A DNA stretch of 45,476 nucleotides, from sequence record PQ429079.1; one strand, given 5' to 3'. Source of the stretch: Escherichia phage vB_VIPECOTPH05A. The position numbers were made by a program, and so were the translations under genes. Below, one piece after another: positions 3,689 through 45,476 of the stretch (positions are counted from its first letter, which is position 1; each line of letters opens with the position of its first letter). The notes below the pieces were generated by a model, which searched no databases, was not told the origin of the DNA, and worked only from the letters and a program-made list of their open reading frames with translations.

Positions 3689-3747
3689 GATGAATCCTCC
3701 AGGTGCGTATTAAGTATGCAGTAACTGGAGGATACCACGGGTAGGAA

Positions 3748-4188: not shown

Positions 4189-4478
4189 TTGTGTCTCCAG
4201 ATGTATTGTCGTCTCTGCGGTTTTGTCGGAATATCATCGTACCCCAGCGATTTCCAGTAATTAAATAACCGATTAGCGATTGCTGCGCGTTCCTTTGTTT
4301 TAAACTCACCGAGGTTCACGGCCTTCCCATTCTGGAATCCACAGGCGCGGACAGCTTTGCGTCTGGCCTGAATCTCAGGGAACAGCGCATTACGGCGGCG
4401 CTTGTATATCTGTGTTTTAGCTCTCGGCGACAGCGGCGCAAGGCCGCTTCGTTTCAGGATGTCAGTTGCAAGGCTCAT
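4185..4478 (-). CDS. AP2-domain DNA-binding protein
   Basis: ORF 4185..4523; likely start MSLATD at 4478; GFQNGKAVNLGEFKTKERAAIANRLF resembles the AP2 domain found in homing endonucleases; no HNH motif. Confidence 0.4.
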   Translation of the reverse strand: MSLATDILKRSGLAPLSPRAKTQIYKRRRNALFPEIQARRKAVRACGFQNGKAVNLGEFKTKERAAIANRLFNYWKSLGYDDIPTKPQRRQYIWRHK

Positions 4479-4669
4479 ATTCCGAGAATCTCGCGGGCCA
4501 TTTCTTCTGTAACTTTCGAACAAGGTTCGTATATTACCTGTTCAGCGAATTCACGTAACTTTGCTTCCAGTTTAAGATAAGCGTCGTATTCTACATAATC
4601 GCCGTATGCGTACTCAGCCATCTCAGGCTCTGGCAGGCCCCATTTTTCCACCTCATACCTCTGTACCAT
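4475..4669 (-). CDS. hypothetical protein (MVQRY paralog A)
   Basis: ORF 4475..4714; likely start MVQRYEVEKWG at 4669; tandem paralog of the adjacent gene. Confidence 0.45.
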   Translation of the reverse strand: MVQRYEVEKWGLPEPEMAEYAYGDYVEYDAYLKLEAKLREFAEQVIYEPCSKVTEEMAREILGI

Positions 4670-4872
4670 CACTCCACCCCTTCCAAATGTGTAACTGACC
4701 CACAGTTCGCGCACTCTACGTAATCAGGGAACTGGTCTTTGTATTTCTGTAACTCGGCTTCAACTTCCAACAGCTTGTGGTCAAGATTCTGGTAGTCCTC
4801 AAACTTAACCCACGCCCCGTGACGGTCCCCGAAATGGTTGTCAGACCCATACTTAGAGTATCTCTGTACCAT
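4669..4872 (-). CDS. hypothetical protein (MVQRY paralog B)
   Basis: ORF 4669..4878; ATG at 4872 with AGGAG RBS; starts MVQRYSKYG. Confidence 0.45.
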   Translation of the reverse strand: MVQRYSKYGSDNHFGDRHGAWVKFEDYQNLDHKLLEVEAELQKYKDQFPDYVECANCGSVTHLEGVE

Positions 4873-4874
4873 AA

Positions 4875-5078
4875 TCACTTCTCCTGTTTACCAAGTCGCT
4901 TAGGTGAGCAGATAGCGCGTACCTCTGAGTCGTTGGGCTTGTCACCCTGAAACAGAAAGTGCGCGTTCTCTGCGGCGCGTGCCGCTGACTGGCACGCCTC
5001 CATCGAATAAAACGTTTCTGATGCCGCTAGCTGCATCTGGCCTGCGGACAATACCCAGATAAATAATATGCTGGTCAT
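4875..5078 (-). CDS. small protein with N-terminal signal-peptide-like segment
   Basis: ORF 4875..5093; likely start MTSILFIWVLSAGQMQLAAS at 5078 (GGGGTGA RBS). Confidence 0.4.
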   Translation of the reverse strand: MTSILFIWVLSAGQMQLAASETFYSMEACQSAARAAENAHFLFQGDKPNDSEVRAICSPKRLGKQEK

Positions 5079-5149
5079 TTGATCACCCCGCATTTAGAGC
5101 ACTGCTGTAAGTCGCTACACCACAGAACCAAACGATAGTCATGTTCACA

Positions 5150-5599
5150 TTACTGTGTGTCAATCTTGTATTCCACTATGTCTGCGTATGTTCCATCCCA
5201 AATCCACGACCGCTTTTCTGCTGCTACACTGTGTTTCGGCTCCTCCCCGTTGCGATACCGGATAAATACCATAGTCCCATCCGGAACAGGTTGTCGTGCA
5301 CCATAATGCGGCCTCCAGGCGTTGTACTGAGTATCTTCCTTACGGCAACCAGATTGCTCCGTGGCATCGATGTATTCTCCAATGTCACCGGTAGACTTAG
5401 CTATCTCTTTACGCAAACGAACGACGGTGCTATTGGCGATATCAAGTTCTTTCTGTAACTCAGCCACCAGCGCCGACGCATCACGTAACTGATTCTTGAG
5501 TGACAACACCTCGTGCGCCAGGTCTTCGCACCGGTTGCTAGTTACCTGCTGCCGTAGCTGGTCAATCAGGTACTCGAATACTTCGTTTTTGTTACTCAT
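5150..5599 (-). CDS. hypothetical protein (coiled-coil N-terminus)
   Basis: ORF 5150..5689; likely start MSNKNEVFEYLIDQLRQQ at 5599. Confidence 0.45.
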   Translation of the reverse strand: MSNKNEVFEYLIDQLRQQVTSNRCEDLAHEVLSLKNQLRDASALVAELQKELDIANSTVVRLRKEIAKSTGDIGEYIDATEQSGCRKEDTQYNAWRPHYGARQPVPDGTMVFIRYRNGEEPKHSVAAEKRSWIWDGTYADIVEYKIDTQ

Positions 5600-6102: not shown

Positions 6103-6271
6103 AGTCAATTACCCCGAACTCGTTGATGATTTGCGCCTTGTAGAAGTTGCCGTTTGATGCCAGGTGATACGCCTGCGCCATAGTCATCTCGCGATAAGTT
6201 GCTGCGCTGTTTTCGAATTCCATAACCATCAAAGTAACCATCTTCTGTCTCTCCTCTCGTTTGTGTAAATG

Positions 6272-6300
6272 AATAGTAGCCTATTCTATCTTAGTGTGCA
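6272..6300 (-). promoter_or_regulatory. sigma70-like promoter (TTGCAC-N17-TACTAT)
   Basis: -35 at 6295-6300 and -10 at 6272-6277 on minus strand, followed by conserved leader AACGAGAGGAGAGACAGAAG-ATG. Confidence 0.5.
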
Positions 6301-7826: not shown

Positions 7827-7851
7827 TCATCTGTCTCGTTTCGATAAGTGA

Positions 7852-7880
7852 ATAGTATCCTATTATGTTGGGGCGTGCAA
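7852..7880 (-). promoter_or_regulatory. sigma70-like promoter (TTGCAC-N17-TACTAT), leftward
   Basis: -35 at 7875-7880 and -10 at 7852-7857 on minus strand. Confidence 0.5.
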
Positions 7881-8770: not shown

Positions 8771-11038
8771 ATGTCCGATGTAATTTTATCCTACTCGTGG
8801 TCACGTCGCAACGCGCGGGCGGAGAAAAAGGATATAAACGTCAGAACCACACACACGGCAACACTGGACGACCTGAAAGAGCTAATCCAGCCGCTCTATG
8901 CCGTTCGTGACGGGATTAACCCTAAGACCGCACCGGGGTATATCACCGCCGCGTGCGATTTGACACACAGCACCGTAAAAGACCCGGAAACCGGCGACTT
9001 TAAGCAAGCGCGTAAAGGCTTTTTCTATCGCTGCGACGCGTCTGTAAGCAAATCGTCGCTGGCGTACCTGGACTTCGACAGCGCAACACCGGAAGAGTAT
9101 CAGGAAGCTGTGCGCCTGGTTAAGCGCAGCCGCCTGGCTATGTGCCTCTACACCACGGCATCCCATACCGATGAGTCACCACGCTTTCGCGTCGTCATGC
9201 CGCTGGGCCGCCCGGTTGAAGGCGGAGACATCATCCGTGTTCGCCATGGATTGCTGGAACACTTCTTCAAAGGCATGGGCGCGGACCGCAGCGGTTTCAC
9301 TCTGTCGCAGCCTATGTACCTGCCGCCGGTTGGCTCTACCGTTATCTGGTCGCGCCGAAACGACCTGATTGACCCGGAAGAGTTACTGGAAGGCATCCCG
9401 GATTACGAGGTGAGCAGCGCATCTGACTACCAGATACCAGAAGAACTGCGTACCGCGTTTACTGATGCGTTTGAGGCGCTGGCGTTTGAGTACGGCGGTG
9501 TTATGACGCCCCGCGGCCTTAAGATGCCAGCTACGCCGGAACATGCAGAAAATTACAGCGACCCTACGCCGCGCCCGGACGACTTCCTGCTGTGCTTCCC
9601 GCGCGAGGGCTACGAAGCGCCGAACGTAACCATGATCCACGACACTGACATTACGGCAACCGAAGGCATGTCGCCGAAAGAGGTGTGGAAATATGCGTGC
9701 GATGCGACCGGGCTTCCGTTCAGTGAAGTTGCAGAGGCAATCGGTTGGGGTACGCGTGGGTCAGTTTCATGCAGCCTGGACGACCTGGAAGACGATGAGG
9801 ACTCAGAGGAGGGCGAGCTACCGGAACCGGTAAAGGCTGATTTCGTCGTTGAAGGGTACATGCCGTCGGATTGTATCTGGGATATCGTCGGGGAATCTGG
9901 CACGTACAAATCGTTCTATACGCTGGGGATGATGTATCTCAGCGCCGCCGGATACCGGTTTGCGGGGGCGGATACCCAGCGTTGCCATCACTTCTATATT
10001 GATGGTGAGGGTGGCGCGGCCACACGTACGCGTATTGACGCGCTCGCGGCTAAATACGGTGCGGAAGGTAAAGATTACGTACACGTCATCGATATGGGTG
10101 AAGTCGGCAAACTGAAAAGCCTGATTAAGTTGATGCGTGAAACTGCGGGCGATGAACCTATCGGCATGGTCGCGTTCGACACCCTTAACCAGACCCTGGC
10201 CCTGACGATTGATAAGTTTGACGAGAACAGTTCATCAACGGCAATCGGTATGGGTAAAGTTATCGCCATCCTGAAAGAAGTGCGTGACGCAACTAAAGCC
10301 GCGGTGGGCGTCGTTCACCATACGCCGAAGGGGGGAAAGAAAGCCCGTGGTAGTGGCGCTCTGTATGCGGGGGTCGATGTGGAACTGACAATCGAACGCG
10401 CCACCGACCGACAGATAAACGTATATCACTCGAAATTCAAGCACGGGCCTCAGCAGAAGACGGTTGGCATGGTACTGGAGTCTGTACAGTTCCGCGAAGC
10501 ACCACCTCCGAAAGAGTACCGCGCGGTTGAGTTCGTCGGTAACACAGAGGAATACGGCGCAATCGTAAACCTGGACCTGCCTGAGCCGCACAAGGCGCTT
10601 GTGCTGATGCCGTGGGGCTTCGAGCCGTTCAAAACTGACGAGGAGAAAGAGCGGGAAGAAGGGCTGACAAAAGAAGGTAAAGAAAACGTACGTAAAACCG
10701 TAGAGAACGCAGTCAATAGTTCAGAAGCCACGATACTTGCCGCGTTTGAACTGGCGGAAGGAACCTACAACGGCAACGAAGGTATCACGGTAGCCGCAGC
10801 GAATAAGCTGGCACGGTCCGACCCTAACGCGAAGGCGTTTAACTCCAAAGAAGCCATAGAACGCGGGAAGATTAAGAAAATGGTTGAGGCGGGGTATCTT
10901 GTGCCAGGGACCGACGAAAACAATCAGATAATACCTGGCCGCTACAGGCTTAACACCAGGATAACGGATAACAAGATTCCGAAGACAATATACGAGCCGA
11001 ATGAGATGCTGGTGGTGACAGAGGAGGATTTGGAATAG
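8771..11038 (+). CDS. primase/helicase-like replication protein (RecA-like AAA ATPase domain)
   Basis: 755 aa; Walker A GESGTYKS, Walker B-like MVAFD, arginine-finger region; N-terminal primase-like region; ends EEDLE. Confidence 0.65.
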   Translation: MSDVILSYSWSRRNARAEKKDINVRTTHTATLDDLKELIQPLYAVRDGINPKTAPGYITAACDLTHSTVKDPETGDFKQARKGFFYRCDASVSKSSLAYLDFDSATPEEYQEAVRLVKRSRLAMCLYTTASHTDESPRFRVVMPLGRPVEGGDIIRVRHGLLEHFFKGMGADRSGFTLSQPMYLPPVGSTVIWSRRNDLIDPEELLEGIPDYEVSSASDYQIPEELRTAFTDAFEALAFEYGGVMTPRGLKMPATPEHAENYSDPTPRPDDFLLCFPREGYEAPNVTMIHDTDITATEGMSPKEVWKYACDATGLPFSEVAEAIGWGTRGSVSCSLDDLEDDEDSEEGELPEPVKADFVVEGYMPSDCIWDIVGESGTYKSFYTLGMMYLSAAGYRFAGADTQRCHHFYIDGEGGAATRTRIDALAAKYGAEGKDYVHVIDMGEVGKLKSLIKLMRETAGDEPIGMVAFDTLNQTLALTIDKFDENSSSTAIGMGKVIAILKEVRDATKAAVGVVHHTPKGGKKARGSGALYAGVDVELTIERATDRQINVYHSKFKHGPQQKTVGMVLESVQFREAPPPKEYRAVEFVGNTEEYGAIVNLDLPEPHKALVLMPWGFEPFKTDEEKEREEGLTKEGKENVRKTVENAVNSSEATILAAFELAEGTYNGNEGITVAAANKLARSDPNAKAFNSKEAIERGKIKKMVEAGYLVPGTDENNQIIPGRYRLNTRITDNKIPKTIYEPNEMLVVTEEDLE

Positions 11039-11041
11039 GTA

Positions 11042-11066
11042 AAAAGAAAGGGGCGTTAAGCCCCTT
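11042..11066 (-). terminator. hairpin terminator between convergent genes
   Basis: stem AAGGGGC/GCCCCTT; U-run on minus-strand side only. Confidence 0.4.
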
Positions 11067-11271
11067 CACCGAACGCCAGCCACTTGGCGTCTACTTCCAG
11101 CACTTCCGCCAGCTTGAACAGCGTCACCGGGCGGACGTCCTGAGTTACCCCGAGCGCAAGCTGGTTAATTGCGCCCTGGGAAACTCCAGTCAGGACAGCC
11201 AGACGGCGCTGGGAGATGCCAAGTTCTTTACGGCGTTGTTCTACGCGAATGCCTAGTTCAGATGGTTGCAT
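11056..11271 (-). CDS. XRE-family HTH transcriptional regulator (Cro/CI-like)
   Basis: 71 aa; RKELGISQRRLAVLTGVSQGAINQLALG is a typical XRE HTH; opposite strand inside the replication module. Confidence 0.7.
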   Translation of the reverse strand: MQPSELGIRVEQRRKELGISQRRLAVLTGVSQGAINQLALGVTQDVRPVTLFKLAEVLEVDAKWLAFGEGA

Positions 11272-11335
11272 GCCAGTTACTCCTTAGTTAGTTGATATGT
11301 GAATAGTACCATATTAATTATTTTAGAAAAGCCCA

Positions 11336-11364
11336 TTGACACATGAATAGTTCGCTATTATAGT
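11336..11364 (+). promoter_or_regulatory. sigma70 consensus-like promoter (TTGACA-N17-TATAGT)
   Basis: followed by conserved leader AACGAGAGGAGAGAAACGT-ATG at 11396. Confidence 0.6.
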
Positions 11365-12771: not shown

Positions 12772-13115
12772 CGGATAAATGGTGGCTTAATTTGCGCAGC
12801 GGTGACAAGGTTTACACCGTCGGTGACCGCAGAAAGAACAGCGGCGTAGCTACTGTGTTACAAAACGGCAAAAAGTACATCCACATTGCGCATGAAGCCC
12901 GGGCGCTCCGCGTGAATAAATCTTCTGGTAGGCTTGAGGATTACCTGAAAACATTAATATACAAAAGTGAAAAGCATCACATGGCCGCTGTTGACGCAAG
13001 ACGTCAGTTCGCAGGAATGTTGCAACAGTTAAGCGACTTACATCGCGATGATTCTTTCACCCCCTCAGAAGAACAGCTACAGGCATTAAACTTGTATTTG
13101 GAGAGTTTACGATGA
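12768..13115 (+). CDS. hypothetical protein
   Basis: ORF 12753..13115; likely ATG at 12768 overlapping previous stop. Confidence 0.45.
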   Translation: MTDKWWLNLRSGDKVYTVGDRRKNSGVATVLQNGKKYIHIAHEARALRVNKSSGRLEDYLKTLIYKSEKHHMAAVDARRQFAGMLQQLSDLHRDDSFTPSEEQLQALNLYLESLR

Positions 13116-14353
13116 TTCTAAAAGAACGCGGCGGCAATAACGATGTTCACGCCTTACTTTCGCCGTCAGGTGCTAAAAAATGGCTGTCATGCGCTGCATC
13201 ACTGGCCTGTGAAAAAGATATTCCTAACACGTCGGGTAAATCCGCCGTTACGGGGACAGCGTGCCACACCATAGCTGAAGTCCATCTCAACGCCTATATC
13301 CGCGGCACTGCGTTGCCGTTAGAGCGTGAAGTTGGCGCTTACGTGCCGGATGAGGGTAAAGGCCAGATTAAGGCGCTAATCAGCCCGATGAAAGGCGCGG
13401 TACTGATTACGGCGGACATGATTGAGCAGGTGCGCAAGTACACCGACTACTGCAAAGCGATTATAGACGTAGCGACTTATGCCAAGCTCGAGATGCGGGT
13501 AAATCTTACTGAGGTGTTGCATCCTGGTTACGAAGGCGTTGAGACGTTCGGAACCGCTGACCTTGTTGCCGTTCAGGAACTGGCAAACACTGGCGAGCAT
13601 ATGCTCCTTATCGGCGACCTTAAAACAGGACGGCATCGTGTTGAAGCGAAAGAAAACAAGCAGCTTATGCTCTACGCTCTCGGTGTTTATCGCCGACTCA
13701 AGAGACGTTATAACATCACCGCGGTTCGTCTGGCCATCTTTCAGCCATACGCTGGCGGCGCGTCGGAGTGGGACATCTCGGTTGAAGGTCTGGAACTGTT
13801 CGCTAAGTTTGCGCAGAAACGGGCGCTGTTAGCTCTTGATGCGTATTTCCGTGGTAAAAAGAACCTGAAAGCGTCGGACTTCAGGCCGTCTGTCGACGGT
13901 TGCCAATGGTGCCGTTTCTCAGAGCAGTGCGCCGCGCGTACAAAAACCGTCAACGCGGTGCTGGCGGAAGAACTGGAGGACGACTTTGCGCTGGAACTGA
14001 CGCCGGAGCAACTCGTCGCTGAGTATGAGAAGCTGCCGCTGTTGCGCCAGCACATCGATAAGGTTGAGAAAGCTATGGCTGCTGCGTTGCATTCCGGTAA
14101 GAAAGTTCCTGGGTACAAGCTGGTTGAAGGTAAGATGGGCAATCGTGCGTGGAAAGACGCGGAGAAAGTAACAGAACTCTACGGCGACAAGCTGACTAAA
14201 GAAGTGCTCATGACGCCAACCGAAGCTGTTAAAGTGATACCGGAAGAAGAACTGAAAGACTTCATCACACGTAAGCCAGGTGCCCCATGCATCACAACGG
14301 CAGACGACAAACGGCCTGAGTGGAATCAGGTTAGTGAAGAAGATTTGGAATAA
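13112..14353 (+). CDS. PD-(D/E)XK exonuclease, Cas4/RecB-like (DUF2800-type)
   Basis: N-terminal HALLSPSGAKKWLSCAASL, GDLKTG, C-terminal cysteine cluster CQWCRFSEQC; ends EEDLE. Confidence 0.6.
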   Translation: MILKERGGNNDVHALLSPSGAKKWLSCAASLACEKDIPNTSGKSAVTGTACHTIAEVHLNAYIRGTALPLEREVGAYVPDEGKGQIKALISPMKGAVLITADMIEQVRKYTDYCKAIIDVATYAKLEMRVNLTEVLHPGYEGVETFGTADLVAVQELANTGEHMLLIGDLKTGRHRVEAKENKQLMLYALGVYRRLKRRYNITAVRLAIFQPYAGGASEWDISVEGLELFAKFAQKRALLALDAYFRGKKNLKASDFRPSVDGCQWCRFSEQCAARTKTVNAVLAEELEDDFALELTPEQLVAEYEKLPLLRQHIDKVEKAMAAALHSGKKVPGYKLVEGKMGNRAWKDAEKVTELYGDKLTKEVLMTPTEAVKVIPEEELKDFITRKPGAPCITTADDKRPEWNQVSEEDLE

Positions 14354-14357
14354 AGTG

Positions 14358-14386
14358 TTGACACCTGAATAGTTAGCTATTATAGT
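14358..14386 (+). promoter_or_regulatory. sigma70 consensus-like promoter (TTGACA-N17-TATAGT)
   Basis: near-identical to the promoter at 11336. Confidence 0.6.
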
Positions 14387-31258: not shown

Positions 31259-31287
31259 TTGCACACCCCAATATAATAGGGTACTAT
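31259..31287 (+). promoter_or_regulatory. sigma70-like promoter (TTGCAC-N17-TACTAT) for opposite-strand island
   Basis: drives plus-strand genes from 31316 inside the minus-strand tail operon. Confidence 0.5.
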
Positions 31288-31315
31288 TCACCCGTAACTT
31301 ACTGAGGAAACAATT

Positions 31316-31642
31316 ATGCGTAAATTAGTATTAGCTCTGGGGTTTATGTCTTTTGCTACTTTTGGGACTCCGTGTGAACAGGTATTTAGCGAATCTGTTC
31401 TTATGACTTCTGGTGTGCTTGAGAAAGCCGACCCTACTATTGTAAAGGCATTTAAGGACTCTACCGTTCGCGAGTGTGAAGCCGCCGTAGAGGTTGGTAA
31501 ATCTGGTCTACCTCCGCAAGCAGTAACATACACGGTGATACGTTCGGTAGAGAAAAACGGAGACGCGTTTTACAGCCTGCTGACAGCCACCCGCCTGCAA
31601 ATGGTAATGGCTGGATGGGCGATAGGCGCGGAAAGTAAATAG
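31316..31642 (+). CDS. secreted/periplasmic small protein (signal peptide)
   Basis: N-terminus MRKLVLALGFMSFATFG is signal-peptide-like; RBS GAGGAAA. Confidence 0.55.
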   Translation: MRKLVLALGFMSFATFGTPCEQVFSESVLMTSGVLEKADPTIVKAFKDSTVRECEAAVEVGKSGLPPQAVTYTVIRSVEKNGDAFYSLLTATRLQMVMAGWAIGAESK

Positions 31643-31708
31643 TCGCCTTTATTTAAAGGAACGCACTGTGGTTAAATAGGACAAATCCTAAACGCGAGGA
31701 AGTAAAGC

Positions 31709-32839
31709 ATGGCCCAGATTAAAATAACCGACGAACAGTTACAGGAAGAATTGAACGCCGGAACAAAGATTATCGACATATCCCGTAAATACGGCATCTC
31801 AGACCGAGTTATTCGTATCCGTAAAGCGAAGCTGGCGAAGAAAGGCGTAGGTCACGGTCGTGACGTTAGCCATCTTGTCCCGGACGGCTACAAGATTAAA
31901 GGCACGTCGTCACTTGTTGACGAGTTCGGCAACACTAAACTGCAATGGGTTAAGACTGATACCGACGCCGAACGTCAGGTTGAATTGATGAAAGCCGTAA
32001 TTGAAGGCATGAAGTCAGAGATTACGCCCGTTGCGCCTGTTAAAGCTGTTCGCGCCAAACGCGACGACAAGCTACTCAATCTTTACACGGTATCTGATTT
32101 CCATCTCGGTATGCTGGCATGGGCTGATGAGAGCGGAGACGACTGGGACATGAAGATTGCAGAAGACCTGTTCTCCCGATGGTTCGACGCGGCGTTCCAG
32201 AAAGCACCGGATGCAGGAACAGGAGTTATTAACCTTCTGGGCGACCTCGCTCACTTCGATAGTCTGGATGCGGTTACACCTGCAAGTGGTCATGTTCTTG
32301 ACGCGGACACGCGCTATCAGAAACTTGTACGCTACATGATTCGTATGGTCCGCCGTGTCGTTGATATGGCTCTGGTTAAACATAAAAATGTTCGCTTGCT
32401 TATCGTGCAAGGGAATCACGACGAAAGTGGCATGATTTGGTTGGCTGAGATGTTCAGCACGCTGTACGACAATGAGCCGCGTGTGTTCGTCGATACGTCG
32501 CCGGATGTTTACAAGATGGTGCAACACGGCAAAACGACGCTGTTCTTCCATCACGGACATAAAGCACGCTTCGACGCTATCGAACCGGTTATGATTGCCA
32601 AGTTCCGCAAAGCGTTCGGCGAGAGCGTTTATAGCTACGCCCACGTAGGCCACCTGCACCACCAGAAAATTGTAGAAAGCCGTAACATGATTGTTGAGCA
32701 ACACCGCACCCTGGCGGCTAAAGACGCCTACGCCTCTCGCGGCGGATGGATGTCAGGTCGTAGTGCAAATGTAATTACTTATAGCGCCGAATATGGTGAG
32801 GTCGCACGTTTAACTATTTCACCGGAGATGCTGGGATGA
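31709..32839 (+). CDS. HTH-fused calcineurin-like metallophosphoesterase
   Basis: N-terminal HTH (IIDISRKYGISDRVIRIRKAK); phosphoesterase motifs SDFHLG, GDLAHFD, QGNHDE, HHGH, GHLHH. Confidence 0.6.
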   Translation: MAQIKITDEQLQEELNAGTKIIDISRKYGISDRVIRIRKAKLAKKGVGHGRDVSHLVPDGYKIKGTSSLVDEFGNTKLQWVKTDTDAERQVELMKAVIEGMKSEITPVAPVKAVRAKRDDKLLNLYTVSDFHLGMLAWADESGDDWDMKIAEDLFSRWFDAAFQKAPDAGTGVINLLGDLAHFDSLDAVTPASGHVLDADTRYQKLVRYMIRMVRRVVDMALVKHKNVRLLIVQGNHDESGMIWLAEMFSTLYDNEPRVFVDTSPDVYKMVQHGKTTLFFHHGHKARFDAIEPVMIAKFRKAFGESVYSYAHVGHLHHQKIVESRNMIVEQHRTLAAKDAYASRGGWMSGRSANVITYSAEYGEVARLTISPEMLG

Positions 32840-34619: not shown

Positions 34620-35036
34620 TTACAGCCTCTTGGTGAATGCAATAAAGTTAATTGACAATGGTCGTTTGGCCCATCCGTTTTCTACAATCAGCGGCCCCAG
34701 GCTTACCGATTGAACCTCGGCGCAGATGTCGTTACGTGAAAATGACTTACCTGCTTTAAATGCCGTGTTAAGTAAGTCTGCCATTTTATTGATTGGCGCG
34801 CTACCTTTCACCGATGCGTAGTTAATGTCGACCTGATAAACACCTGAGCGTTGTTCTGTGAAGAACAAATCCGCCTGTTCTGTATCCGCAAGTAACATGT
34901 AACTTGCCAGATACGGCGTATCGGTTGACGTCGGCGCGTCGATGTTTTCAAGCGAGACCTTGATGCCGTTGGTTGTTCCGAAGGCTACCAGCGGCACATC
35001 AAATGCTTTGGTTAAGTCCTCAAAGTAGCCCATCAT
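34620..35036 (-). CDS. tail terminator / tail completion protein (putative)
   Basis: 138-aa ORF immediately upstream of major tail protein (gene order). Confidence 0.45.
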   Translation of the reverse strand: MMGYFEDLTKAFDVPLVAFGTTNGIKVSLENIDAPTSTDTPYLASYMLLADTEQADLFFTEQRSGVYQVDINYASVKGSAPINKMADLLNTAFKAGKSFSRNDICAEVQSVSLGPLIVENGWAKRPLSINFIAFTKRL

Positions 35037-37905: not shown

Positions 37906-38955
37906 TTAAGCACCGACACCAGTTACCAGGAAGGCAATCGGTACATGCTTACGCTCAACAACGCGGTTCCAGTTGGAGGCGTTCGCCAGGTCCTGCCATG
38001 AAGCAGAACGTGCGACGGTCTCGGTGCCGTTACCGGTGATTACTGCGCTGGTAAAGCTGTAGCCCAGTGGGTGCAGCAACCAGGTCTTACGGGTCCACAG
38101 GGTTTCTACCCCACCGCCGTTGCCGCGAGACGCTTCGCGCTCGTATTCCAACGGGTTGGACGGAGAACCTTCACCGTAACCGATAGCGCCGTTACCGAAG
38201 ATAATGGAGATGAACTTACGGCTAGAGTCGGTGCTGACTACGGTCATGCTGTCGTCAACAATCACGCGGTAACCCTGGTAGGTGGCGAACAGTGTGTCGT
38301 TGTCGGCGTCTTTGATGAAGTCAATAAGCTGCTGCTTACGGGCCTGCGCATAAACGAAGCTGTGCATCGCGATAGCACCCAGCACTTCTCCGCCGTTGCC
38401 CATCAGCGCATCACCCATAGTCTGGGTGGCGTCGATGAACGCACCTGCGTCGAAGCCCAGAGTAGCAGACACGTCTACAACCATGTCATTCTGCTCGTGG
38501 TATGCGTCGGTAGCGGCTACGTTGTCATTGTACAGACCGAGCGCGGTAGCGATCAGACGGCGTTGCGCCTGGCGCTGCCAGAAGTTATCCAGACGGGACG
38601 CTACGGATTGCAGCGGGTTCTGGCTGGTCAGTTCGACAGTCAGGTCCGCCTGGCCAAAACCTTCGTTCAGGTATGCAACGCGCGCCATCATCTCGCCGGT
38701 TTGCACGTTACGCGGGGTAGCGATGTCCTGGTATACGTCGTTCGAGTAGTTAGGCTCGATAGAAGTATCAATCGCTTTCCAGAAAGGAATGTTAGCGACG
38801 TTGGACGGGCCGCGGGCAATCTCGGCGGCGTACGGAGTAGGGGTAAGAATACCGGACTGGAAGAACGCGGTTTTTTCTACCGGGTCCTCGGTCATATAAG
38901 ACGCCAGGACCGGGATGTTGCCAGTTACGATATCGCCGATAGTGGTAATTGCCAT
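37906..38955 (-). CDS. major capsid protein
   Basis: 349-aa protein immediately after the scaffold gene and followed by a strong terminator. Confidence 0.7.
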   Translation of the reverse strand: MAITTIGDIVTGNIPVLASYMTEDPVEKTAFFQSGILTPTPYAAEIARGPSNVANIPFWKAIDTSIEPNYSNDVYQDIATPRNVQTGEMMARVAYLNEGFGQADLTVELTSQNPLQSVASRLDNFWQRQAQRRLIATALGLYNDNVAATDAYHEQNDMVVDVSATLGFDAGAFIDATQTMGDALMGNGGEVLGAIAMHSFVYAQARKQQLIDFIKDADNDTLFATYQGYRVIVDDSMTVVSTDSSRKFISIIFGNGAIGYGEGSPSNPLEYEREASRGNGGGVETLWTRKTWLLHPLGYSFTSAVITGNGTETVARSASWQDLANASNWNRVVERKHVPIAFLVTGVGA

Positions 38956-38957
38956 TA

Positions 38958-39659
38958 TTATTTCCTCAGGGCTTTAAGTTGCCGTTCAAATTCGGCAGGG
39001 TTCGATTTATACAGAGCTAAACGCTCCGCTTCACTCATGTCTTTAAACGCTGGTGCGGCCCCGCCGCCTTTGCCACCGGAAGCCCCGCCGCCGGAAGCTG
39101 CATTTGCTTTAATCAAATGCGAAAACGCTTTGTGTTCGCGCAGGTATTTGCGGAACTGTTCAGGGTCAGTCGTGATTACACCGCCGTCTGGCCCAACAAA
39201 CTTAGTAACCACATCATCACCTTCGAACTCAGTCTTAACGAACGGAGCAAGAATGTCTACTGCTTCCGGGGTAATAAAGTCACCTGCGAAAGAGCCTAAC
39301 ACCGCTTTACGTTCGCTGCCGAGGATGCGCTCAGCCATTTTGGTTATGCGACCATCTTTCTCGGCTAACACCGGGTCATACTGGCTACGAATCGTCTTTT
39401 CGAACTCGTCCATCTTGCCGGCGGCTTTTAGCGCCTCCTGGTGCGCACGCTGACGTTCCTCTTCGGCCTCTTTTGCTTTACGGGCGGCTTCTTTCTTCTC
39501 CGCCAGCAATGCTTCCTGATTGGCCTTAAGTCCGGCAACTTCTTTCTCAATCATCGCCTGAACTTCTTCAGCGGTGAACATTTTTGGAGCGTCGCCACCG
39601 CTAGATTTATCTTCTGCCCCAGCTTCTTCCTGGAACGGATAGTGTAAAAAACGATTCAT
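38958..39659 (-). CDS. scaffolding protein
   Basis: ORF 38958..39713; likely start MNRFLHY at 39659; long Ala/Glu/Lys coiled-coil and Gly-rich C-terminus. Confidence 0.6.
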   Translation of the reverse strand: MNRFLHYPFQEEAGAEDKSSGGDAPKMFTAEEVQAMIEKEVAGLKANQEALLAEKKEAARKAKEAEEERQRAHQEALKAAGKMDEFEKTIRSQYDPVLAEKDGRITKMAERILGSERKAVLGSFAGDFITPEAVDILAPFVKTEFEGDDVVTKFVGPDGGVITTDPEQFRKYLREHKAFSHLIKANAASGGGASGGKGGGAAPAFKDMSEAERLALYKSNPAEFERQLKALRK

Positions 39660-39741
39660 AGTCAGTATGTCCCCTGGACGTTGGAATCCGGGCCTCCCGG
39701 ATTTACATGTCAAGAATAAATTATTCCAACATGCAAGGCAA

Positions 39742-40005
39742 CTATTCCAGAATATTCCTCACGTAATCCTGCAACATGAACACTTTCAGTCTCAGTTGCC
39801 GTACACATTCGGCGTTCTGAACGTCGATAGCTAAATCCTCGTCTGCGTCGCTACTTGGCAGTGCCAGTTTGCACGGCGGCTGCATCATCGGCATACCCGG
39901 GGATGGAATTGGCGTTTGCGACGGCGCGGGACTTGAGCTGCACCCGCTCAGGGTCAAAAGTGCACACGCTGCGGCCAGGCGTTTTAATGTACTTAACGAC
40001 TTCAC
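39742..40005 (-). CDS. outer-membrane spanin lipoprotein (Rz1-like)
   Basis: lipobox LTLSGC, Pro-rich mature region; overlaps Rz-like gene in another frame. Confidence 0.6.
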   Translation of the reverse strand: MKSLSTLKRLAAACALLTLSGCSSSPAPSQTPIPSPGMPMMQPPCKLALPSSDADEDLAIDVQNAECVRQLRLKVFMLQDYVRNILE

Positions 40006-40237
40006 GGGTTATCACCTCTGATTTCGTTTTGCCTTCGTTGTCAGCGGCGGCGGCCTTTGATTCATCCTGCTGCTGCCGTTGTGTTTTCTTCGCGAACTCA
40101 GCCTGTGCTTTCTGCTGTTGCTGCGAAACGAGATTAGCACGGCCTTCACCCCAGCCGCTGCGGTATTGATAGATGCCGTGTGCGTAGGCCAGGACGACGA
40201 AACATGCTCCGGCTACGACAGTTGCTTTAAGATTCAT
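39851..40237 (-). CDS. inner-membrane spanin (Rz-like)
   Basis: N-terminal TMD ATVVAGACFVVLAYA followed by Gln/Ala/Lys-rich predicted helix. Confidence 0.6.
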   Translation of the reverse strand: MNLKATVVAGACFVVLAYAHGIYQYRSGWGEGRANLVSQQQQKAQAEFAKKTQRQQQDESKAAAADNEGKTKSEVITREVVKYIKTPGRSVCTFDPERVQLKSRAVANANSIPGYADDAAAVQTGTAK

Positions 40238-40488
40238 GTTTCCCCTTTCTCGATAAGTAAAGCCCCGCCTTAAAGCGGGGCGCTAGTCCTTATCATTTAA
40301 ACATAGAAACGGCGTAATCTCAGTAAACCAGTTACTTTTTACACAAGCAATAGAGTATGGCCCTTCCGAACGCGTCAGCGTAACTACACTCAGGACTTAC
40401 GTCCCGCTCCGTTACCTGCCCGCGCCGCGGTCGCTTGTTCATACTTCACAAGCTCAGGTGGAGCTTATCATATTTTCAGTGAAAAGTC

Positions 40489-40504
40489 AACTATTCGAAT
40501 AGTT
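40489..40504. promoter_or_regulatory. perfect 16-bp palindrome AACTATTCGAATAGTT (operator-like)
   Basis: exact inverted repeat about 55 bp upstream of promoter at 40557; half-site ACTATTC recurs in -10/start regions of other promoters. Confidence 0.45.
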
Positions 40505-40556
40505 TATTCCAACGTTTACAATTGAGTGGAATAACTGGAATACGTAAATAAATAGT

Positions 40557-40585
40557 TTGCGCGCACCAACATAATAGGGTACTAT
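40557..40585 (+). promoter_or_regulatory. sigma70-like promoter (TTGCGC-N17-TACTAT)
   Basis: same -10/start context (GGGTACTATTCA) as promoter at 31259. Confidence 0.5.
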
Positions 40586-40612
40586 TCAGTTAACTTAAAC
40601 AGGAGATGAGAA

Positions 40613-41134
40613 ATGATTACTACAGTAATTACTTTCCCTGCGTATGTAGGGGCGAAAATATGCAGGGCTAAAAATGATGTGCGCTACTATTTGAACGCTT
40701 TTTACATAGACCCTGAAGGATTGATAGTGTCTACGGACGGTCATAGATTGTTCTGCGACAATGTGAAGACCAACGTTGAGAAAGGGACTCTCATAGACAT
40801 CAAAGGGAGAGAGCCTTCTAAATTTAACTACGCGGAGGTAAACCACGACAACGGCAGTGTATCTTTCTATGACGATAATCGTGCGCTTATATGTACACTT
40901 CCGGTAGATGTTGTAGAAGGAAACTTTCCTGACTGGAGACGCGTGGTGCACATCACACCGGGTGTTGTCGATAGTATAGGGTTCACTCTGCGCTATTTGG
41001 CAGACGCGTACAAGATTTCTAAGGCATACAAAAATGAAATTGCTCGTTTCGATTTCCAGGACCAAACCAGAGGATGCAAAATACAATTTTCAAACACGGC
41101 CTTTATGGTGTTAATGCCCGCGCGATTTAAATAA
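40613..41134 (+). CDS. hypothetical protein (opposite-strand moron)
   Basis: 173-aa ORF with AGGAG RBS, own promoter and terminator; possible PD-(D/E)XK-like pattern STDGHRL...IDIKGRE (weak). Confidence 0.55.
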   Translation: MITTVITFPAYVGAKICRAKNDVRYYLNAFYIDPEGLIVSTDGHRLFCDNVKTNVEKGTLIDIKGREPSKFNYAEVNHDNGSVSFYDDNRALICTLPVDVVEGNFPDWRRVVHITPGVVDSIGFTLRYLADAYKISKAYKNEIARFDFQDQTRGCKIQFSNTAFMVLMPARFK

Positions 41135-41137
41135 AAC

Positions 41138-41166
41138 TAAGGCCCCATATGGGGCCTTTTATCATT
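41138..41166. terminator. bidirectional rho-independent terminator
   Basis: stem AAGGCCCC/GGGGCCTT with T4 run. Confidence 0.7.
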
Positions 41167-41623
41167 CTGGTTTAGAGACCTTCGCCGCTTTGCTTACGGC
41201 CTCTGCACCATCGGCATCGGTAACTTTAACGAAGTATTCGCCCGCCGCATTAACCGTCAGAGACAGCGCCTCTTCAGGGGCATTTACCACTTCCTTCCCG
41301 TCTTTGTACCAGGTCAGTACATACGGCGCTTTACCCGCCTTAACTTCGACGGTGATGGTGGCGCTACCGTCGACCAGCTCGGTGTCTTTCGGCTGCACAG
41401 AGAAATACACATCACCAGCGTCCGCCAGATACGGAATCTCATAAAGCATACCCGCCGCGGGTAACGCAATACCGGTTTTATCTGCAAATGGCATATCATC
41501 CACTGGTGTACCGAGTACACTTTCATCTCCAATAAACACCACGTTCTCGCCGGAACCAGACACTCGGGCGTACTGGACTACTCGACGTGACGGTACATCA
41601 GTTACTTTGAAAAAGCCCATCAT
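41162..41623 (-). CDS. Ig-like domain protein (putative structural/decoration)
   Basis: C-terminal PYVLTWYKDGKEVVNAPEEALSLTVNAAGEYFVKVTD resembles an Ig-like domain. Confidence 0.45.
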   Translation of the reverse strand: MMGFFKVTDVPSRRVVQYARVSGSGENVVFIGDESVLGTPVDDMPFADKTGIALPAAGMLYEIPYLADAGDVYFSVQPKDTELVDGSATITVEVKAGKAPYVLTWYKDGKEVVNAPEEALSLTVNAAGEYFVKVTDADGAEAVSKAAKVSKPE

Positions 41624-42699
41624 TATTCCCCTTTCAGATAATCAGCAACACGTTTATCGAGTTCCGCCATCTGCTTAAGCGTGAGCGGATTCCCGAAACC
41701 ATCTACAGATATTACGCGAAACTCTTCCGGCGATATACCGCTGTTACGGAAAATCTTACCGCGGGTCGGCCCGAGTGCTTCGTCCACGAACCACGCCGGT
41801 TGTTGTTCCAGGAACTCGTAGTAAGTGGTGTCTGCGCTTACCTGAGTACCTCCGTCCGCGCCCTTAGCCGCACGTTTTGCACCTTTATCGAGGAAGTCGA
41901 ACTCTGAACTGATTACAGGTGCCGTGGTACTTCGGCACCCAAAATGGGCCGGGGGTATCGGCCCCTTACCGATTTCCCACGTCATTCCGTCTCTGGCCCT
42001 ACAAATCGTACTGGTACGGCTGTCTAGCGTTGACACCCACTCGTACTTCTCGATGATGTCGTCGTTCTGGCGGTACGTCTCGTTACGGGCCTCGTTGGAT
42101 ACATGAGACAGCGCGGTGCGGATTACCGTAGCTGCGTTACGCTCGGAGATGTCCGCCAAACCACCAGCACCAACAACATTCTTAACAATCTGCCGTGTTG
42201 TCTTACCCTGAACAAAGCCCATCTTAACGCCGGTTACGAGACGTGCTACTTCGGTTTCGCCCCATCCCGACATCAGCTTAGTGAAATCAACAGGCTTGTC
42301 GCTTAATGATAAGGGTTGAAACTCGGCAGCGGACCACACCTGTTCGGCGGTAGGCGTAACAAATTCCGCATCTACGTTGGTGGTCAGTGTCTTTACATTC
42401 CACTCGGCCTCATACGCCGCCAGTTCCATAAGGTCTTCTGTCAGCTTTGTTTGCCAGTCACCGGTAAGCGCGGTAAGTGCTTCTTCAAGGTCGCGTAACA
42501 GTTTATTCAGTCGCGCGGTGCTTCGCCCGTCGTCGCCGAATAACAGCACCTGCCGTTTTATTTCGTCCCGCATCTCCTTAATGAACGGCGCGAGGTCTTT
42601 CACCTCACCGGATGCAGTGCGTTGCAGCCATATCTGGTGGCTGATTAGAGATGTAAGTAAGCTCATAGATAAACCCTGTGGCGCTAAAGTTAATAGCAT
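41623..42699 (-). CDS. head morphogenesis protein (SPP1 gp7 / Mu F-like)
   Basis: WVSTLDSRTSTICRARDGMTWEIGKGPIPPAHFGCRSTT fits that family; real start may be Met at 42666. Confidence 0.65.
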   Translation of the reverse strand: MLLTLAPQGLSMSLLTSLISHQIWLQRTASGEVKDLAPFIKEMRDEIKRQVLLFGDDGRSTARLNKLLRDLEEALTALTGDWQTKLTEDLMELAAYEAEWNVKTLTTNVDAEFVTPTAEQVWSAAEFQPLSLSDKPVDFTKLMSGWGETEVARLVTGVKMGFVQGKTTRQIVKNVVGAGGLADISERNAATVIRTALSHVSNEARNETYRQNDDIIEKYEWVSTLDSRTSTICRARDGMTWEIGKGPIPPAHFGCRSTTAPVISSEFDFLDKGAKRAAKGADGGTQVSADTTYYEFLEQQPAWFVDEALGPTRGKIFRNSGISPEEFRVISVDGFGNPLTLKQMAELDKRVADYLKGE

Positions 42700-42735: not shown

Positions 42736-44217
42736 TTACTGCTGAGTGACATCTTGTTGCTGCGCCGACTGCGGAATCTCTCCTGCCACCTGAGTAACCG
42801 CACCTAACGGCAGAGGTGCGCCCTCAATAGCGTTCTGAATATCCTCGTCGGTCCAGTCAGTCACCCCTGCTTTACGCAACGCGGAGTAGTATGCGGTCGC
42901 TGGCAGCAGACCGGCATTAATGTCCGCCATCCACTGAGCGCGGTCCTGAGCGGTCATCGGTTGCAGGAAGAACTCCATGTTAAGTTTGAACTCAATCTCT
43001 GTGCCTTCACGCAACCCTAGCATCGCAGCCACCCAGCGCAACGCATCGGTATACGCCATGCTTACGTTACGTGCGATTGTCGCCATAACGGACGTGTCAG
43101 CACCACGTTGCAGGCGGGCCGATTCAGCGGTGATTTGCTGCGTCGGGGTGATAAGCTGCGCACCAATCTGGATGGCCTGATTCTCTTTATCCAGCATGTT
43201 CTGCTTGGCCAGGTTATTCTCTCCGGCCTGGACCAGAAACGCATTGCCGCCGTAGCCGATGTTATGACCTGAACGCGACCCCATGCGCACACCGTGTGGG
43301 TTAGCCTCTTTCCACTGTTCCATGCTCATGTTCTCACCCGGGGCGATGAACAGAGTTGGCTGACCTACAACGAAGCTGGATTCCTCATTGTCTGCGCTGT
43401 TGCGGAAATGCCCGATATTAAGCTCGGCCAACGGCAGCAAAGGCGCATCGTCAATGGTCGCGTCGTTATTGCTTGCGCCGATAAACGTGAACGGGATTTT
43501 GCCGCGCAACTGTTCGCCAAGTTCCGGGAATATTTCGATTACTTCATCCTGGGCACCACCTTCGGCATCGAAGCGGTAAATGCGCTGGCGGTAGCGCCCA
43601 TCAATCAGGTCAAGGACGCGGTATTGCTCGCCGAACTTTGTTTCGAACTCTGCACCAGGTTCTGAGTATTCCCATATCTCACGTAATACAACCATCGTCA
43701 CGCGGTTCACTGAACCGACGCGAGCCAGTCGCCAGTTGATGATGTTCTCCGCGGTATAGAATGCGATGACCGGGTTTAATAGCCCTGCGTTCTGCTCGGC
43801 TGCCGTTGCTGCAGCTGTCTCAGGGGCATCCACCAGCAACCCGCCGCGGCCCACCGAATCAATCTCCATCAGCGTATCCTGCGCGTGCTGCCACAGCCCG
43901 ACACCGGAACCGTCGGCATTACGTAACAGGTACTCAAGTTCAGGCGGGATAATCTGCTCTGGGTCTTTGCACATCACTGACCCAACCATCCCCGCCAGGG
44001 TACGTTTGGTGAAGTTGTAGCAGATAGCGCCGTTCTCGTATTCTTCCTGGCGCTGGTCTGCGTATTTCTGGTCTGGCTCATTCTTCCCGACATTTCGAAG
44101 ATAGCGAATAAGGTCGCCTTCCAGCGCGTGGCGCACCTTCTGCCATTTATTGAAGTGATGCAGCCATTCCCGGTGTTTTGTCTTAACACCCTGATTCTGA
44201 CCGTTCATAGTTAACAT
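42736..44217 (-). CDS. portal protein
   Basis: 493-aa protein between large terminase and head morphogenesis genes. Confidence 0.7.
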   Translation of the reverse strand: MLTMNGQNQGVKTKHREWLHHFNKWQKVRHALEGDLIRYLRNVGKNEPDQKYADQRQEEYENGAICYNFTKRTLAGMVGSVMCKDPEQIIPPELEYLLRNADGSGVGLWQHAQDTLMEIDSVGRGGLLVDAPETAAATAAEQNAGLLNPVIAFYTAENIINWRLARVGSVNRVTMVVLREIWEYSEPGAEFETKFGEQYRVLDLIDGRYRQRIYRFDAEGGAQDEVIEIFPELGEQLRGKIPFTFIGASNNDATIDDAPLLPLAELNIGHFRNSADNEESSFVVGQPTLFIAPGENMSMEQWKEANPHGVRMGSRSGHNIGYGGNAFLVQAGENNLAKQNMLDKENQAIQIGAQLITPTQQITAESARLQRGADTSVMATIARNVSMAYTDALRWVAAMLGLREGTEIEFKLNMEFFLQPMTAQDRAQWMADINAGLLPATAYYSALRKAGVTDWTDEDIQNAIEGAPLPLGAVTQVAGEIPQSAQQQDVTQQ

Positions 44218-44229
44218 TGAATAATCCTC

Positions 44230-45476
44230 TTAAAGTGCGAAAGTTACCGGGATGTTGATTACTGGTTTAACCACCGGCATCTCATAAACTACAGGATAGC
44301 CGAGAGCATCCGCCATATGGTCAATGACGCCGTCTTTAGCAGGCTCTCCGTTATCATCATATGCCTGCTGCTCCAGCGTCTTCGCTATCTCAGGGCATAA
44401 GTGGTCGTTAACCCACAGCTTACCTTTTTCCAGCGCGGTATTCACGGCTAAAACACGGTCTTTAACCGGTGGGTTGGCGGATTTAGCGCGAACATCAAAA
44501 CCAGCCTGCTGTAGTAAGGCGATATCGGAGATTGATGCTGAGTTGGTTTTGCGGTTCTTGCCGCTGGCGTCCGGGTAAACGACGATGCGGTGGCCTTGCG
44601 ACTTCCACTTCTCGGTAATCACACGCACGGTATCTGGCGTATCGAACAGGCCCTTCAGTTCTGCTACCGCGTGCCAGCCGTCTTTACGTTGCACATACAC
44701 GGCGCTGGCGTTCTTCGTAACGTTGAAGTCCTGCCCGATGTACAGCGTGTCGCCCGGTTGGATTGTCTCTTTGCTGCGATGCTTACGTCGGTCGTAGGCG
44801 TAGTATACGCTGCCGGATGTCAGGTTAACGAACTCCCCATTCAGGTACGCGTTAATCAGTTGCGCTGGGTAAGTCTCGGTCAGCGAGCTAATGTAGTCAG
44901 GCGGCAGGAATCGCGCGTTCTCGTGGGTGGAAGCCTGCACCATTGAGTAACTCGGTGTCGGGTTCTCTTTGAACTTGGCGTAGACGAACTTGAACCCTTC
45001 CGGCGTCGTGGTGACGGAGATGTGGTTGGTTACACCAGGGATAACCAGACGCATACGGGCGACGATTTTGTTCCATGCCAGTTCAGCTTTTTCTCGGCTC
45101 AGTACGTCCAGTTCATCCACGACCGCGGCGGCGATTTTGAAACCCACAATCGAACCGGGGTTATCCATAGAACGACAGATAACCGTTCCGAGCACCGTCT
45201 TACCGCGAGTAACCACGACCTCTTTGTCTCCGGATTTAACCAGCACATCAAGGCCGAGCAGGTTAGCCGCTTCCTCGAATGTCGGGTAGAAGATGTCACG
45301 GATGGCGGGATAGGTGGGGCCGAAGTAGCCCAGGCGCGTACCGGGATGCTTGAGCATAAACGTAAGCAGGTCAAGGCAGCCGACAAACGTCTTGCCACTA
45401 CCGAAGCCGCCTACGTAGGCCTTGTATTTGTTGTCACAATTCAGGAACAGTGCCTGCGGCGCGGATAGCTGAATAC
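44230..45476 (-). CDS. terL: terminase large subunit (5' end at/through window edge)
   Basis: Walker A YVGGFGSGKTF near the window end; frame stays open to the edge and, if circular, joins an ATG at positions 4..2. Confidence 0.8.
   Translation of the reverse strand, partial: IQLSAPQALFLNCDNKYKAYVGGFGSGKTFVGCLDLLTFMLKHPGTRLGYFGPTYPAIRDIFYPTFEEAANLLGLDVLVKSGDKEVVVTRGKTVLGTVICRSMDNPGSIVGFKIAAAVVDELDVLSREKAELAWNKIVARMRLVIPGVTNHISVTTTPEGFKFVYAKFKENPTPSYSMVQASTHENARFLPPDYISSLTETYPAQLINAYLNGEFVNLTSGSVYYAYDRRKHRSKETIQPGDTLYIGQDFNVTKNASAVYVQRKDGWHAVAELKGLFDTPDTVRVITEKWKSQGHRIVVYPDASGKNRKTNSASISDIALLQQAGFDVRAKSANPPVKDRVLAVNTALEKGKLWVNDHLCPEIAKTLEQQAYDDNGEPAKDGVIDHMADALGYPVVYEMPVVKPVINIPVTFAL

Follow-up and report, generated by a model that had tools for sequence, protein, structure and literature searches.

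What is encoded by the single plus-strand gene that sits among the minus-strand head genes of Escherichia phage vB_VIPECOTPH05A, and what could its product do? The phage record (PQ429079.1) was analysed as one stretch of 45,476 nucleotides, hereafter the window. A sequence-only reading had described this 173-residue gene as an opposite-strand moron with its own promoter, ribosome-binding site (RBS) and bidirectional terminator, had seen no evident function, and had suggested a small nuclease from a weak D...(D/E)xK-like pattern (STDGHRL...IDIKGRE). We find that the protein is almost certainly a truncated, ring-incompetent homologue of the beta sliding clamp (DnaN) of DNA polymerase III (Pol III), and we refer to it as the mini-clamp. 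For the locus as a whole, we favor by a modest margin of belief a moron-like Kagunavirus cassette that encodes a ring-incompetent mini beta clamp acting through its peptide-binding pocket. The clamp homology itself is already in the databases, where close relatives are annotated 'DNA polymerase III sliding clamp', so a function was in fact within reach; what the labels 'sliding clamp' and 'RusA-like resolvase' hide is the minimised, ring-less and pocket-keeping nature of the protein.

At curated thresholds the protein does not show the three-domain architecture of the approximately 366-residue DnaN: its matches to PF02767, the central domain of Pol III beta in Pfam (17.2 against a cut-off of 27), and to the NCBIfam dnaN model TIGR00663 (21.4 against a cut-off of 137.65) both fall below threshold. 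In PHROGs, residues 13-172 match positions 12-186 of the 190-position phrog_3007 profile (E 1.7e-36), a family labelled 'RusA-like resolvase', and there is a second, weaker match to a processivity-factor family. A phmmer comparison with PDB sequences aligns residues 16-117 with E. coli beta 144-253, from domain II through the FPDYRRV linker, and residues 117-171 with beta 312-365, which is the final beta-alpha-beta-beta-beta unit of domain III and ends in VVMPMR. The AlphaFold2 (AF2) model built with 61 homologues (predicted local distance difference test, pLDDT, 95.3; predicted template modelling score, pTM, 0.91) displays a clamp fold made of three beta-alpha-beta-beta-beta-type units, the middle one without its helix, and fold searches with this model found only clamps among the structural matches. 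The root-mean-square deviation is low over both pieces, and the half of domain III therefore packs on domain II as it does in a real clamp. According to the model, the protein consists of domain II minus one of its two inner helices, followed by the C-terminal half of domain III.

Which features of the clamp have been kept? We took the lists of pocket and interface residues from PMC11139829 and mapped them through a HMMER alignment. All 12 subsite I residues are identical to those of E. coli beta (R152, L155, T172, G174, H175, R176, L177, P242, R246, V247, V360 and M362), and the pocket overall (subsites I and II) is identical at 15 of 18 positions, as compared with 26% identity elsewhere (binomial P ~6e-7). 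At the residue level, then, the pocket for clamp-binding motifs is present. In the 61-sequence family alignment, the columns that are invariant or nearly so are these pocket positions (RYY, TDGHR, PDWRR, Y128 and MPxR). None of the seven dimer-interface residues, namely I78, R103 and F106 of domain I and I272, L273, E298 and E304 of domain III, has a counterpart; beta 254-311 is missing as a block, so that the FPDWRRV motif is joined to the half-domain by a linker of a few residues. With domain I and the N-terminal half of domain III the protein has lost the head-to-tail dimer interface that they carry, and it therefore cannot close a canonical ring. Of the two inner helices of domain II, which face the DNA, the second is absent from the Kagunavirus model and present in a longer relative, and the other is shortened. 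What is retained, domain II and half of domain III, coincides exactly with the docking-cleft region of DnaN. The protein is a stable, selected fragment of one and a half clamp domains, and the docking cleft is its most conserved feature.

This architecture recurs in many phages. A profile search of 1.84 billion representatives returned 421 clusters at E<=1e-30, and of the best 150 listed nearly all are 170-230 residues long; tblastn found the gene in 233 phage records, including those of Kagunavirus, Dhillonvirus, Saltrevirus, Gorganvirus and Serratia phage Eta as well as Klebsiella, Vibrio, Acinetobacter and Burkholderia phages; and BFVD contains matching short models with template modelling (TM) scores of 0.81-0.87. 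The full-length profile match and the single-module architecture place the mini-clamp in the short phage beta-clamp-like family PHROG 3007, whose members Shigella phage EP23 gp08, Sodalis phage SO-1 gp7 and Serratia phage Eta gp10 have the same length and are 30-44% identical to it. Within this family the Kagunavirus subgroup is the minimal version, lacking both the second inner helix of domain II and the C-terminal [LAV]PxW tail. Most members of 190-230 residues (P0042-P0215 among them) continue beyond MPxR into a tail with an [L/A/V]PxW motif, many of them ending in ...AA, whereas the Kagunavirus proteins stop at MPARFK, much as E. coli beta stops at MPMRL. In the AF2 model of one tail-bearing relative (P0046) the tail looks ordered (pLDDT 74-83) and may dock on the body of the protein. 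In another relative (P0208, 680 residues) the mini-clamp module is N-terminal and fused to an LPD29 'large polyvalent protein' domain, and the 1394-residue polyvalent protein A0A6J7W9M3 in BFVD is a weaker structural match (TMq 0.54); these two proteins link the family to proteins thought to act in early invasion. When plasmids were searched with a family member, most of the matches were full-length plasmid dnaN genes. Our literature searches found no experimental study of any family member and no characterised short, truncated or decoy phage clamp; the paper on polyvalent proteins does not mention a clamp domain, and the CRISPRi-ART paper covers no phage with a mini-clamp gene. The family is large and apparently uncharacterised.

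How does the mini-clamp compare with known clamps and clamp fragments? DnaN has approximately 366 residues, and the 173-residue phage protein lacks its domain I, the first half of its domain III, its dimer interface and one inner helix of domain II. Closer in kind are two ring-less or shortened forms that keep the docking pocket, the monomeric E. coli beta variant I272A/L273A and beta*, the latter reportedly described by Skaliter, Paz-Elizur and Livneh in 1996 as an internally initiated dnaN product with its start close to the N-terminal end of domain II. Both are laboratory or host forms with a full domain III, and the variant also retains domain I, whereas the phage protein is smaller, natural and viral. 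The monomeric variant I272A/L273A still binds DNA (PMC11139829). The herpesvirus factors UL42, UL44, BMRF1 and PF-8 consist of two full PCNA-type domains, bind DNA directly through a basic face and are essential subunits of the replisome; in contrast, the phage protein, an accessory one, has one and a half domains of the beta-clamp type.

All known beta partners dock in the cleft, and monomeric beta binds partners, delta approximately 50-fold more tightly than the dimer does, without supporting processive synthesis (PMC11139829). We propose that the mini-clamp would reproduce the docking site of the host clamp in soluble form, away from DNA. Its pocket would bind clamp-binding motifs (QL[S/D]LF-type) in host DNA-metabolism proteins or in phage proteins; candidate host partners are the clamp-loader subunit delta, Pol III alpha and epsilon, Pol II, Pol IV and Pol V, MutS and MutL, Hda, and others. 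The partners would then be either sequestered, with the mini-clamp as a decoy, or redirected to phage DNA metabolism, with the mini-clamp as an adaptor. Expression would be driven by a phage-regulon promoter whose -10 element lies under an operator-like palindrome shared with replication-gene promoters and, given this shared palindrome, the mini-clamp is probably an early or middle gene. That the protein functions by binding peptides in its conserved pocket seems to us rather more probable than the opposite; any one particular outcome, be it decoy, adaptor or another, is a tentative suggestion at most.

The gene neighborhoods of other phages bear on the choice between these outcomes. A ParB-like gene lies upstream of the mini-clamp gene in Serratia phage Eta, where the two are adjacent, and in phages ZCKP8 and 64795_sal3, the last of which also has an anti-restriction gene. 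A helicase gene follows in Eta, methyltransferase and single-stranded DNA-binding protein (SSB) genes are nearby in a Vibrio phage, and in metagenomic phages genes for DUF932, DUF6378 or DUF5906/VapE-type primase-helicases lie close by. In several siphophage lineages the mini-clamp gene stands alone on the opposite strand within the head or tail module. The accessory status of the gene, its exchange with a methyltransferase (see below), the polyvalent fusions and the ParB-like and anti-restriction neighbors lean towards a role in host interaction, and the primase-helicase neighborhoods lean towards a role as a replisome adaptor. A more speculative generalization, which we consider less likely than not, is that a widespread family of ring-incompetent 'clamp-pocket mimics' is used by phages, and by polyvalent proteins of mobile elements, as decoys or adaptors for proteins with clamp-binding motifs. 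If this were true, delta, translesion polymerases, mismatch repair, Hda and clamp-dependent nucleases would be titrated off the host clamp or, alternatively, host polymerase would be recruited to phage primase-helicases, and the mini-clamps would represent a previously undescribed form of host takeover or counter-defence by molecular mimicry of a replication hub.

Several other identities have to be weighed against a selected clamp fragment. The idea of a PD-(D/E)xK-type nuclease draws on a loose resemblance in STDGHRL...IDIKGRE. STDGHRL is the TDGHRL of the beta clamp (E. coli T172-L177), a part of the peptide-binding pocket to which the aspartate belongs; IDIKGRE falls exactly at the site of the lost helix, in family columns that are not conserved; and structure prediction, which the sequence-only reading had called for, and fold searches yield a beta clamp and no nuclease fold. 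The fold effectively refutes the nuclease, and we attach practically no probability to it. A RusA-like Holliday-junction resolvase fares no better: the full-length phrog_3007 match carries that label, and the label has been copied into many phage records, but there is no Pfam RusA match at E<=1, the fold is that of a beta clamp, and the label looks like a propagated pipeline annotation error. The full label, 'RusA-like Holliday junction resolvase', is widespread in PHROG 3007 and in RefSeq/GenBank (e.g., NC_031918.1 and PQ423993.1). In other records the same proteins are annotated Pol III beta, and relatives pass the PF02767 threshold. The PADLOC anti-defence library contains no match for the mini-clamp. 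Alternatively, a truncated cellular gene that is not universal in its genus might be the decaying, functionless remnant of a captured dnaN. This is very improbable. The ratio of nonsynonymous to synonymous substitution rates (dN/dS) is 0.10-0.24, with dS up to 0.48, in 21 pairwise comparisons of seven orthologues, and the gene is under purifying selection; the model is compact and of very high confidence; the same truncated architecture occurs in hundreds of 50%-identity clusters and in the 233 phage records from many genera; and the gene has a dedicated RBS and terminator and a predicted promoter of its own.

A more serious alternative, though still an unlikely one, is that the mini-clamp is a processivity or replisome accessory factor, which would form a ring or arc through a new interface or work without a ring, as do the herpesvirus factors UL42/UL44 with their clamp fold, and which would tether a polymerase (the family-A enzyme of the phage or host Pol III that has been recruited) to DNA or to the phage helicase-primase. 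The replication-module position of the gene near primase-helicases in many phages is equally compatible with such a replisome role and with a decoy. However, the gene is missing from approximately 85% of the Guernseyvirinae with the same replication module, so the replisome does not need it, and the mini-clamp is dispensable for the replication module of the genus. Furthermore, both canonical interface elements are gone, of the two DNA-facing helices one is lost and one shortened, and monomeric beta cannot support processive synthesis (PMC11139829). A scan of the polymerase, helicase-primase, exonuclease and SSB of the phage found no canonical clamp-binding motif, a result that speaks against the accessory factor and also against the pocket-binding mini-clamp that we prefer.

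Other points also weigh against our preferred reading, and the neutrality of the primase-helicase neighborhoods is one of them. Three subsite II positions differ from E. coli beta (N320T, V344T and M364A). The retention of the pocket could in part be structural inertia, as pocket residues are the most conserved ones in beta clamps generally. A non-canonical oligomer with a DNA-encircling or DNA-binding role is possible, and our model is of a monomer only. No binding partner was identified, and the promoter and the timing of expression are deduced from sequence motifs. A single QADLF occurs among the phage proteins, internal to a 138-residue open reading frame (ORF; 34620-35036, minus strand) that is probably a tail terminator gene by the annotation of a relative. 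Near the C-terminus of the phage PolA there is an 'LPEW' that resembles the tail motif of the long family members; by comparison with the E. coli Pol I C-terminus it presumably falls in the conserved polymerase core, and we treat it as a coincidence. The helicase-primase (8771-11038) and the exonuclease (13112-14353) share an acidic C-terminal ...EEDLE. This common tail suggests a shared docking partner and is reminiscent of the acidic C-terminal tails of the T7 replisome.

Is the locus a moron? The mini-clamp gene is present in approximately 26-30 (~15%) of 180 or more Guernseyvirinae records, and the presence/absence comparison thus bears out its accessory status. Among relatives the cassette is found at three different intergenic sites of the head module. 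In fBC-Eco01, phage 26, Shashou and Sciku it lies between the head-morphogenesis and portal genes, and Salmonella phage SE1 has a copy, 66.5% identical, between its scaffold and spanin genes. In megablast comparisons with the first four of these phages only query positions 259-873 align, which correspond to the cassette limits in Table 1, and the boundary alignments agree. The interval first proposed began at 40288; the stretch from 40288 to approximately 40545 lies outside the cassette. The right end is a GC-rich hairpin in every location. The GC content of the cassette is 37-45%, as compared with 50-56% in its flanks, and the sign of the GC skew is inverted within it. The slot that the cassette occupies in the window holds an adenine methyltransferase gene in Jerseyvirus S100 and a 67-residue ORF in fEg-Eco06, both behind the same block of approximately 55 bp. 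Like the lambdoid morons described by Hendrix, then, the cassette is an extra gene inserted between genes that are neighbors in relatives, with patchy distribution and its own base composition. Its terminator is clear, and its predicted promoter has a recurring, conserved motif and a weak sigma-70 match. In contrast to those morons, it is found in a virulent phage, its predicted promoter belongs to a phage-wide regulon and its slot accepts exchangeable cargo. The term moron consequently stands for a self-contained opposite-strand cassette of distinct composition, patchy occurrence and three sites, and fails in so far as the promoter is not foreign, being one of seven copies across the phage. 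The description as a moron-like accessory unit is essentially right, with the promoter/terminator pair as a reusable slot of the phage and not as imported DNA.

The predicted promoter matches only 7 of 12 positions of the sigma-70 consensus, and a generic promoter scan made no call there. Its -10 element is overlapped by the 18-bp near-palindrome TGAATAGTACCCTATTAT (AATAG-N4-CTATT), which occurs seven times in the window with three or fewer mismatches, as compared with 0.01 copies expected; the copy at 31273 is identical to that at 40571. At four of the copies the layout is TTGC(A/G)C-N17-TACTAT, facing left at 6270 and 7849 and right at 31273 and 40571. At least two further copies, 11344 and 14366, lie between a consensus TTGACA and TATAGT, and the genes behind them encode the exonuclease, SSB and DNA polymerase. 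All seven copies occupy promoter-like positions upstream of genes. In at least these six the palindrome covers the spacer and the -10 element of a promoter-like site, a placement as expected of a putative operator, and the copies at 6270, 7849, 11300, 11344 and 14366 precede early or replication genes. A block of approximately 55 bp comprising the promoter and 5' untranslated region (5'UTR) is kept ahead of different cargo genes in relatives and also heads the cassette at 31273. In fBC-Eco01 a 'phage promoter' predicted by PHIRE is annotated upstream of a slot with other cargo, and in the fBC-Eco01 publication this motif is described as a recurring 'phage promoter' with the consensus tgAATAGTa-ccTATTat-T, which matches TGAATAGTACCCTATTAT. 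The promoter proposed for the gene is thus strengthened by the recurring motif and the conserved block, and weakened by its poor consensus match and the silence of the generic scan; we regard it as plausible and as part of a phage-wide regulon. The motif probably marks a regulon under a dimeric phage regulator. A candidate repressor or regulator is a 71-residue XRE/Cro-type helix-turn-helix (HTH) protein, annotated as a transcriptional regulator (phrog_5823) in a relative, whose gene is divergent from and directly beside the copies at 11300 and 11344. In the other plus-strand cassette, which begins at 31273, a 108-residue protein with a signal-peptide-like N-terminus precedes an SbcD-like exonuclease, and at the corresponding position a relative has a shorter ORF whose annotation reads superinfection immunity protein.

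The remaining parts of the mini-clamp cassette agree well with the sequence-only reading. The ORF of 173 codons is present exactly as claimed, and the AGGAG RBS precedes its ATG by 7 nt, at the place where an RBS is annotated in phage Schulenburg. The terminator is a perfect 8-bp stem, AAGGCCCC-ATAT-GGGGCCTT, which scores as a terminator on both strands, as had been claimed, and is annotated on both strands in Schulenburg and fBC-Eco01. An antisense ORF (40595-41086) overlaps the mini-clamp gene and is a shadow, because purifying selection acts on the mini-clamp gene.

Between the i-spanin gene and the cassette lies a separate, ultraconserved island. It is 96-100% identical to Jerseyvirus S100, where the capsid, scaffold and spanin genes are 63-96% identical per 75-nt bin and the whole aligned stretch 83.2%, and over 263 nt an identity of 95.8% or more is reached by 179 of 180 records. 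In an alignment of five phages there are three variable positions from the -10 element of the island to the i-spanin start; the 36-residue ORF of its leader has two substitutions, both non-synonymous. A search for Rfam families found none at the gathering threshold and chance-level matches only at E<=5, and no tRNA or tmRNA was found in the island. The predicted fold is not unusually stable (minimum free energy z-score -1.1), and for an analysis of covariation the compared phages vary too little in sequence. The layout recalls the lambda PR'-6S RNA-tR' region, in which a late promoter and leader are followed by a terminator that is read through by an antiterminator; this likeness is offered as an idea only. 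The island could be a late-operon leader or antitermination site, or a small RNA. The palindrome AACTATTCGAATAGTT, which overlaps its promoter-like -35, uses the AATAG/CTATT half-sites of the 18-bp motif in inverted order.

Finally, the locus can be placed among its relatives. A nucleotide search with the region 40288-41166 matched 180 phage records, the best of them from Kagunavirus (Guernseyvirinae) Escherichia phages such as vB_VIPECOMC04, fFiEco02 and Schulenburg (97.5-98.6% identity). The local gene order in Table 1 was read from the annotation of relatives and the ORF list. The gene had been placed between the spanin and head-morphogenesis genes; this is correct on the spanin side, and on the right-hand side a gene for a Hoc-like protein intervenes.

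Table 1. Positions in the window of the mini-clamp cassette, its regulatory elements and neighboring features.
Feature	Position	Strand	Details
Mobile cassette	40546-41160	+	predicted promoter, 5'UTR, mini-clamp gene and terminator; limits approximate, from relatives with the cassette elsewhere
Predicted promoter	40557-40585	+	TTGCGC (-35, 40557-40562), N17, TACTAT (-10, 40580-40585)
18-bp near-palindrome TGAATAGTACCCTATTAT, putative operator	40571-40588	-	overlaps -10 of the mini-clamp promoter
RBS AGGAG	40601-40605	+	7 nt before ATG
Mini-clamp gene	40613-41134	+	173 aa, ATG start; truncated beta-clamp homologue; from ORF list
Bidirectional intrinsic terminator	41139-41158	both	8-bp GC-rich stem, 4-nt loop, T-runs on each strand
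Copies of TGAATAGTACCCTATTAT	6270-6287, 7849-7866, 11300-11317, 11344-11361, 14366-14383, 31273-31290 (minus strand), 40571-40588		
XRE/Cro-type HTH protein	11056-11271	-	ORF, 71 aa
Other plus-strand cassette	31273-32839	+	108-aa ORF, 31316-31642; SbcD-like exonuclease (376 aa, DNA repair), 31709-32839
Major capsid protein	37906-38955	-	
Scaffold	38958-39713	-	
i-/o-spanin	39851-40237	-	o-spanin embedded
Ultraconserved island	40206-40505	-	between i-spanin gene and cassette, separate from the cassette
Strong intrinsic terminator (island)	40262-40281	-	immediately before i-spanin RBS/start (40237)
36-aa ORF (island)	40332-40442	-	within leader of ~200 nt
Promoter-like site (island)	TTGACT, 40485-40490; TAAGCT, 40462-40467	-	N17 spacer, TG before -10
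Perfect 16-bp palindrome AACTATTCGAATAGTT	40489-40504		overlaps promoter-like -35 of island
Hoc-like head decoration	41162-41623	-	153 aa; right-hand neighbor of mini-clamp gene
Head morphogenesis	41623-42699	-	
Portal	42736-44217	-	terminase precedes in minus-strand order

Compared with the window, two close relatives carry homing-type insertions, L002 (PQ423993.1) at 38038-38544 and 43020-44399 and L014 (PQ141284.1) at 3520-5328. The insertions in these relatives comprise an HNH endonuclease that separates the spanin genes, a homing endonuclease beside the portal gene and, within the minor head protein, an intein; selfish elements evidently insert in the head module as a hotspot.

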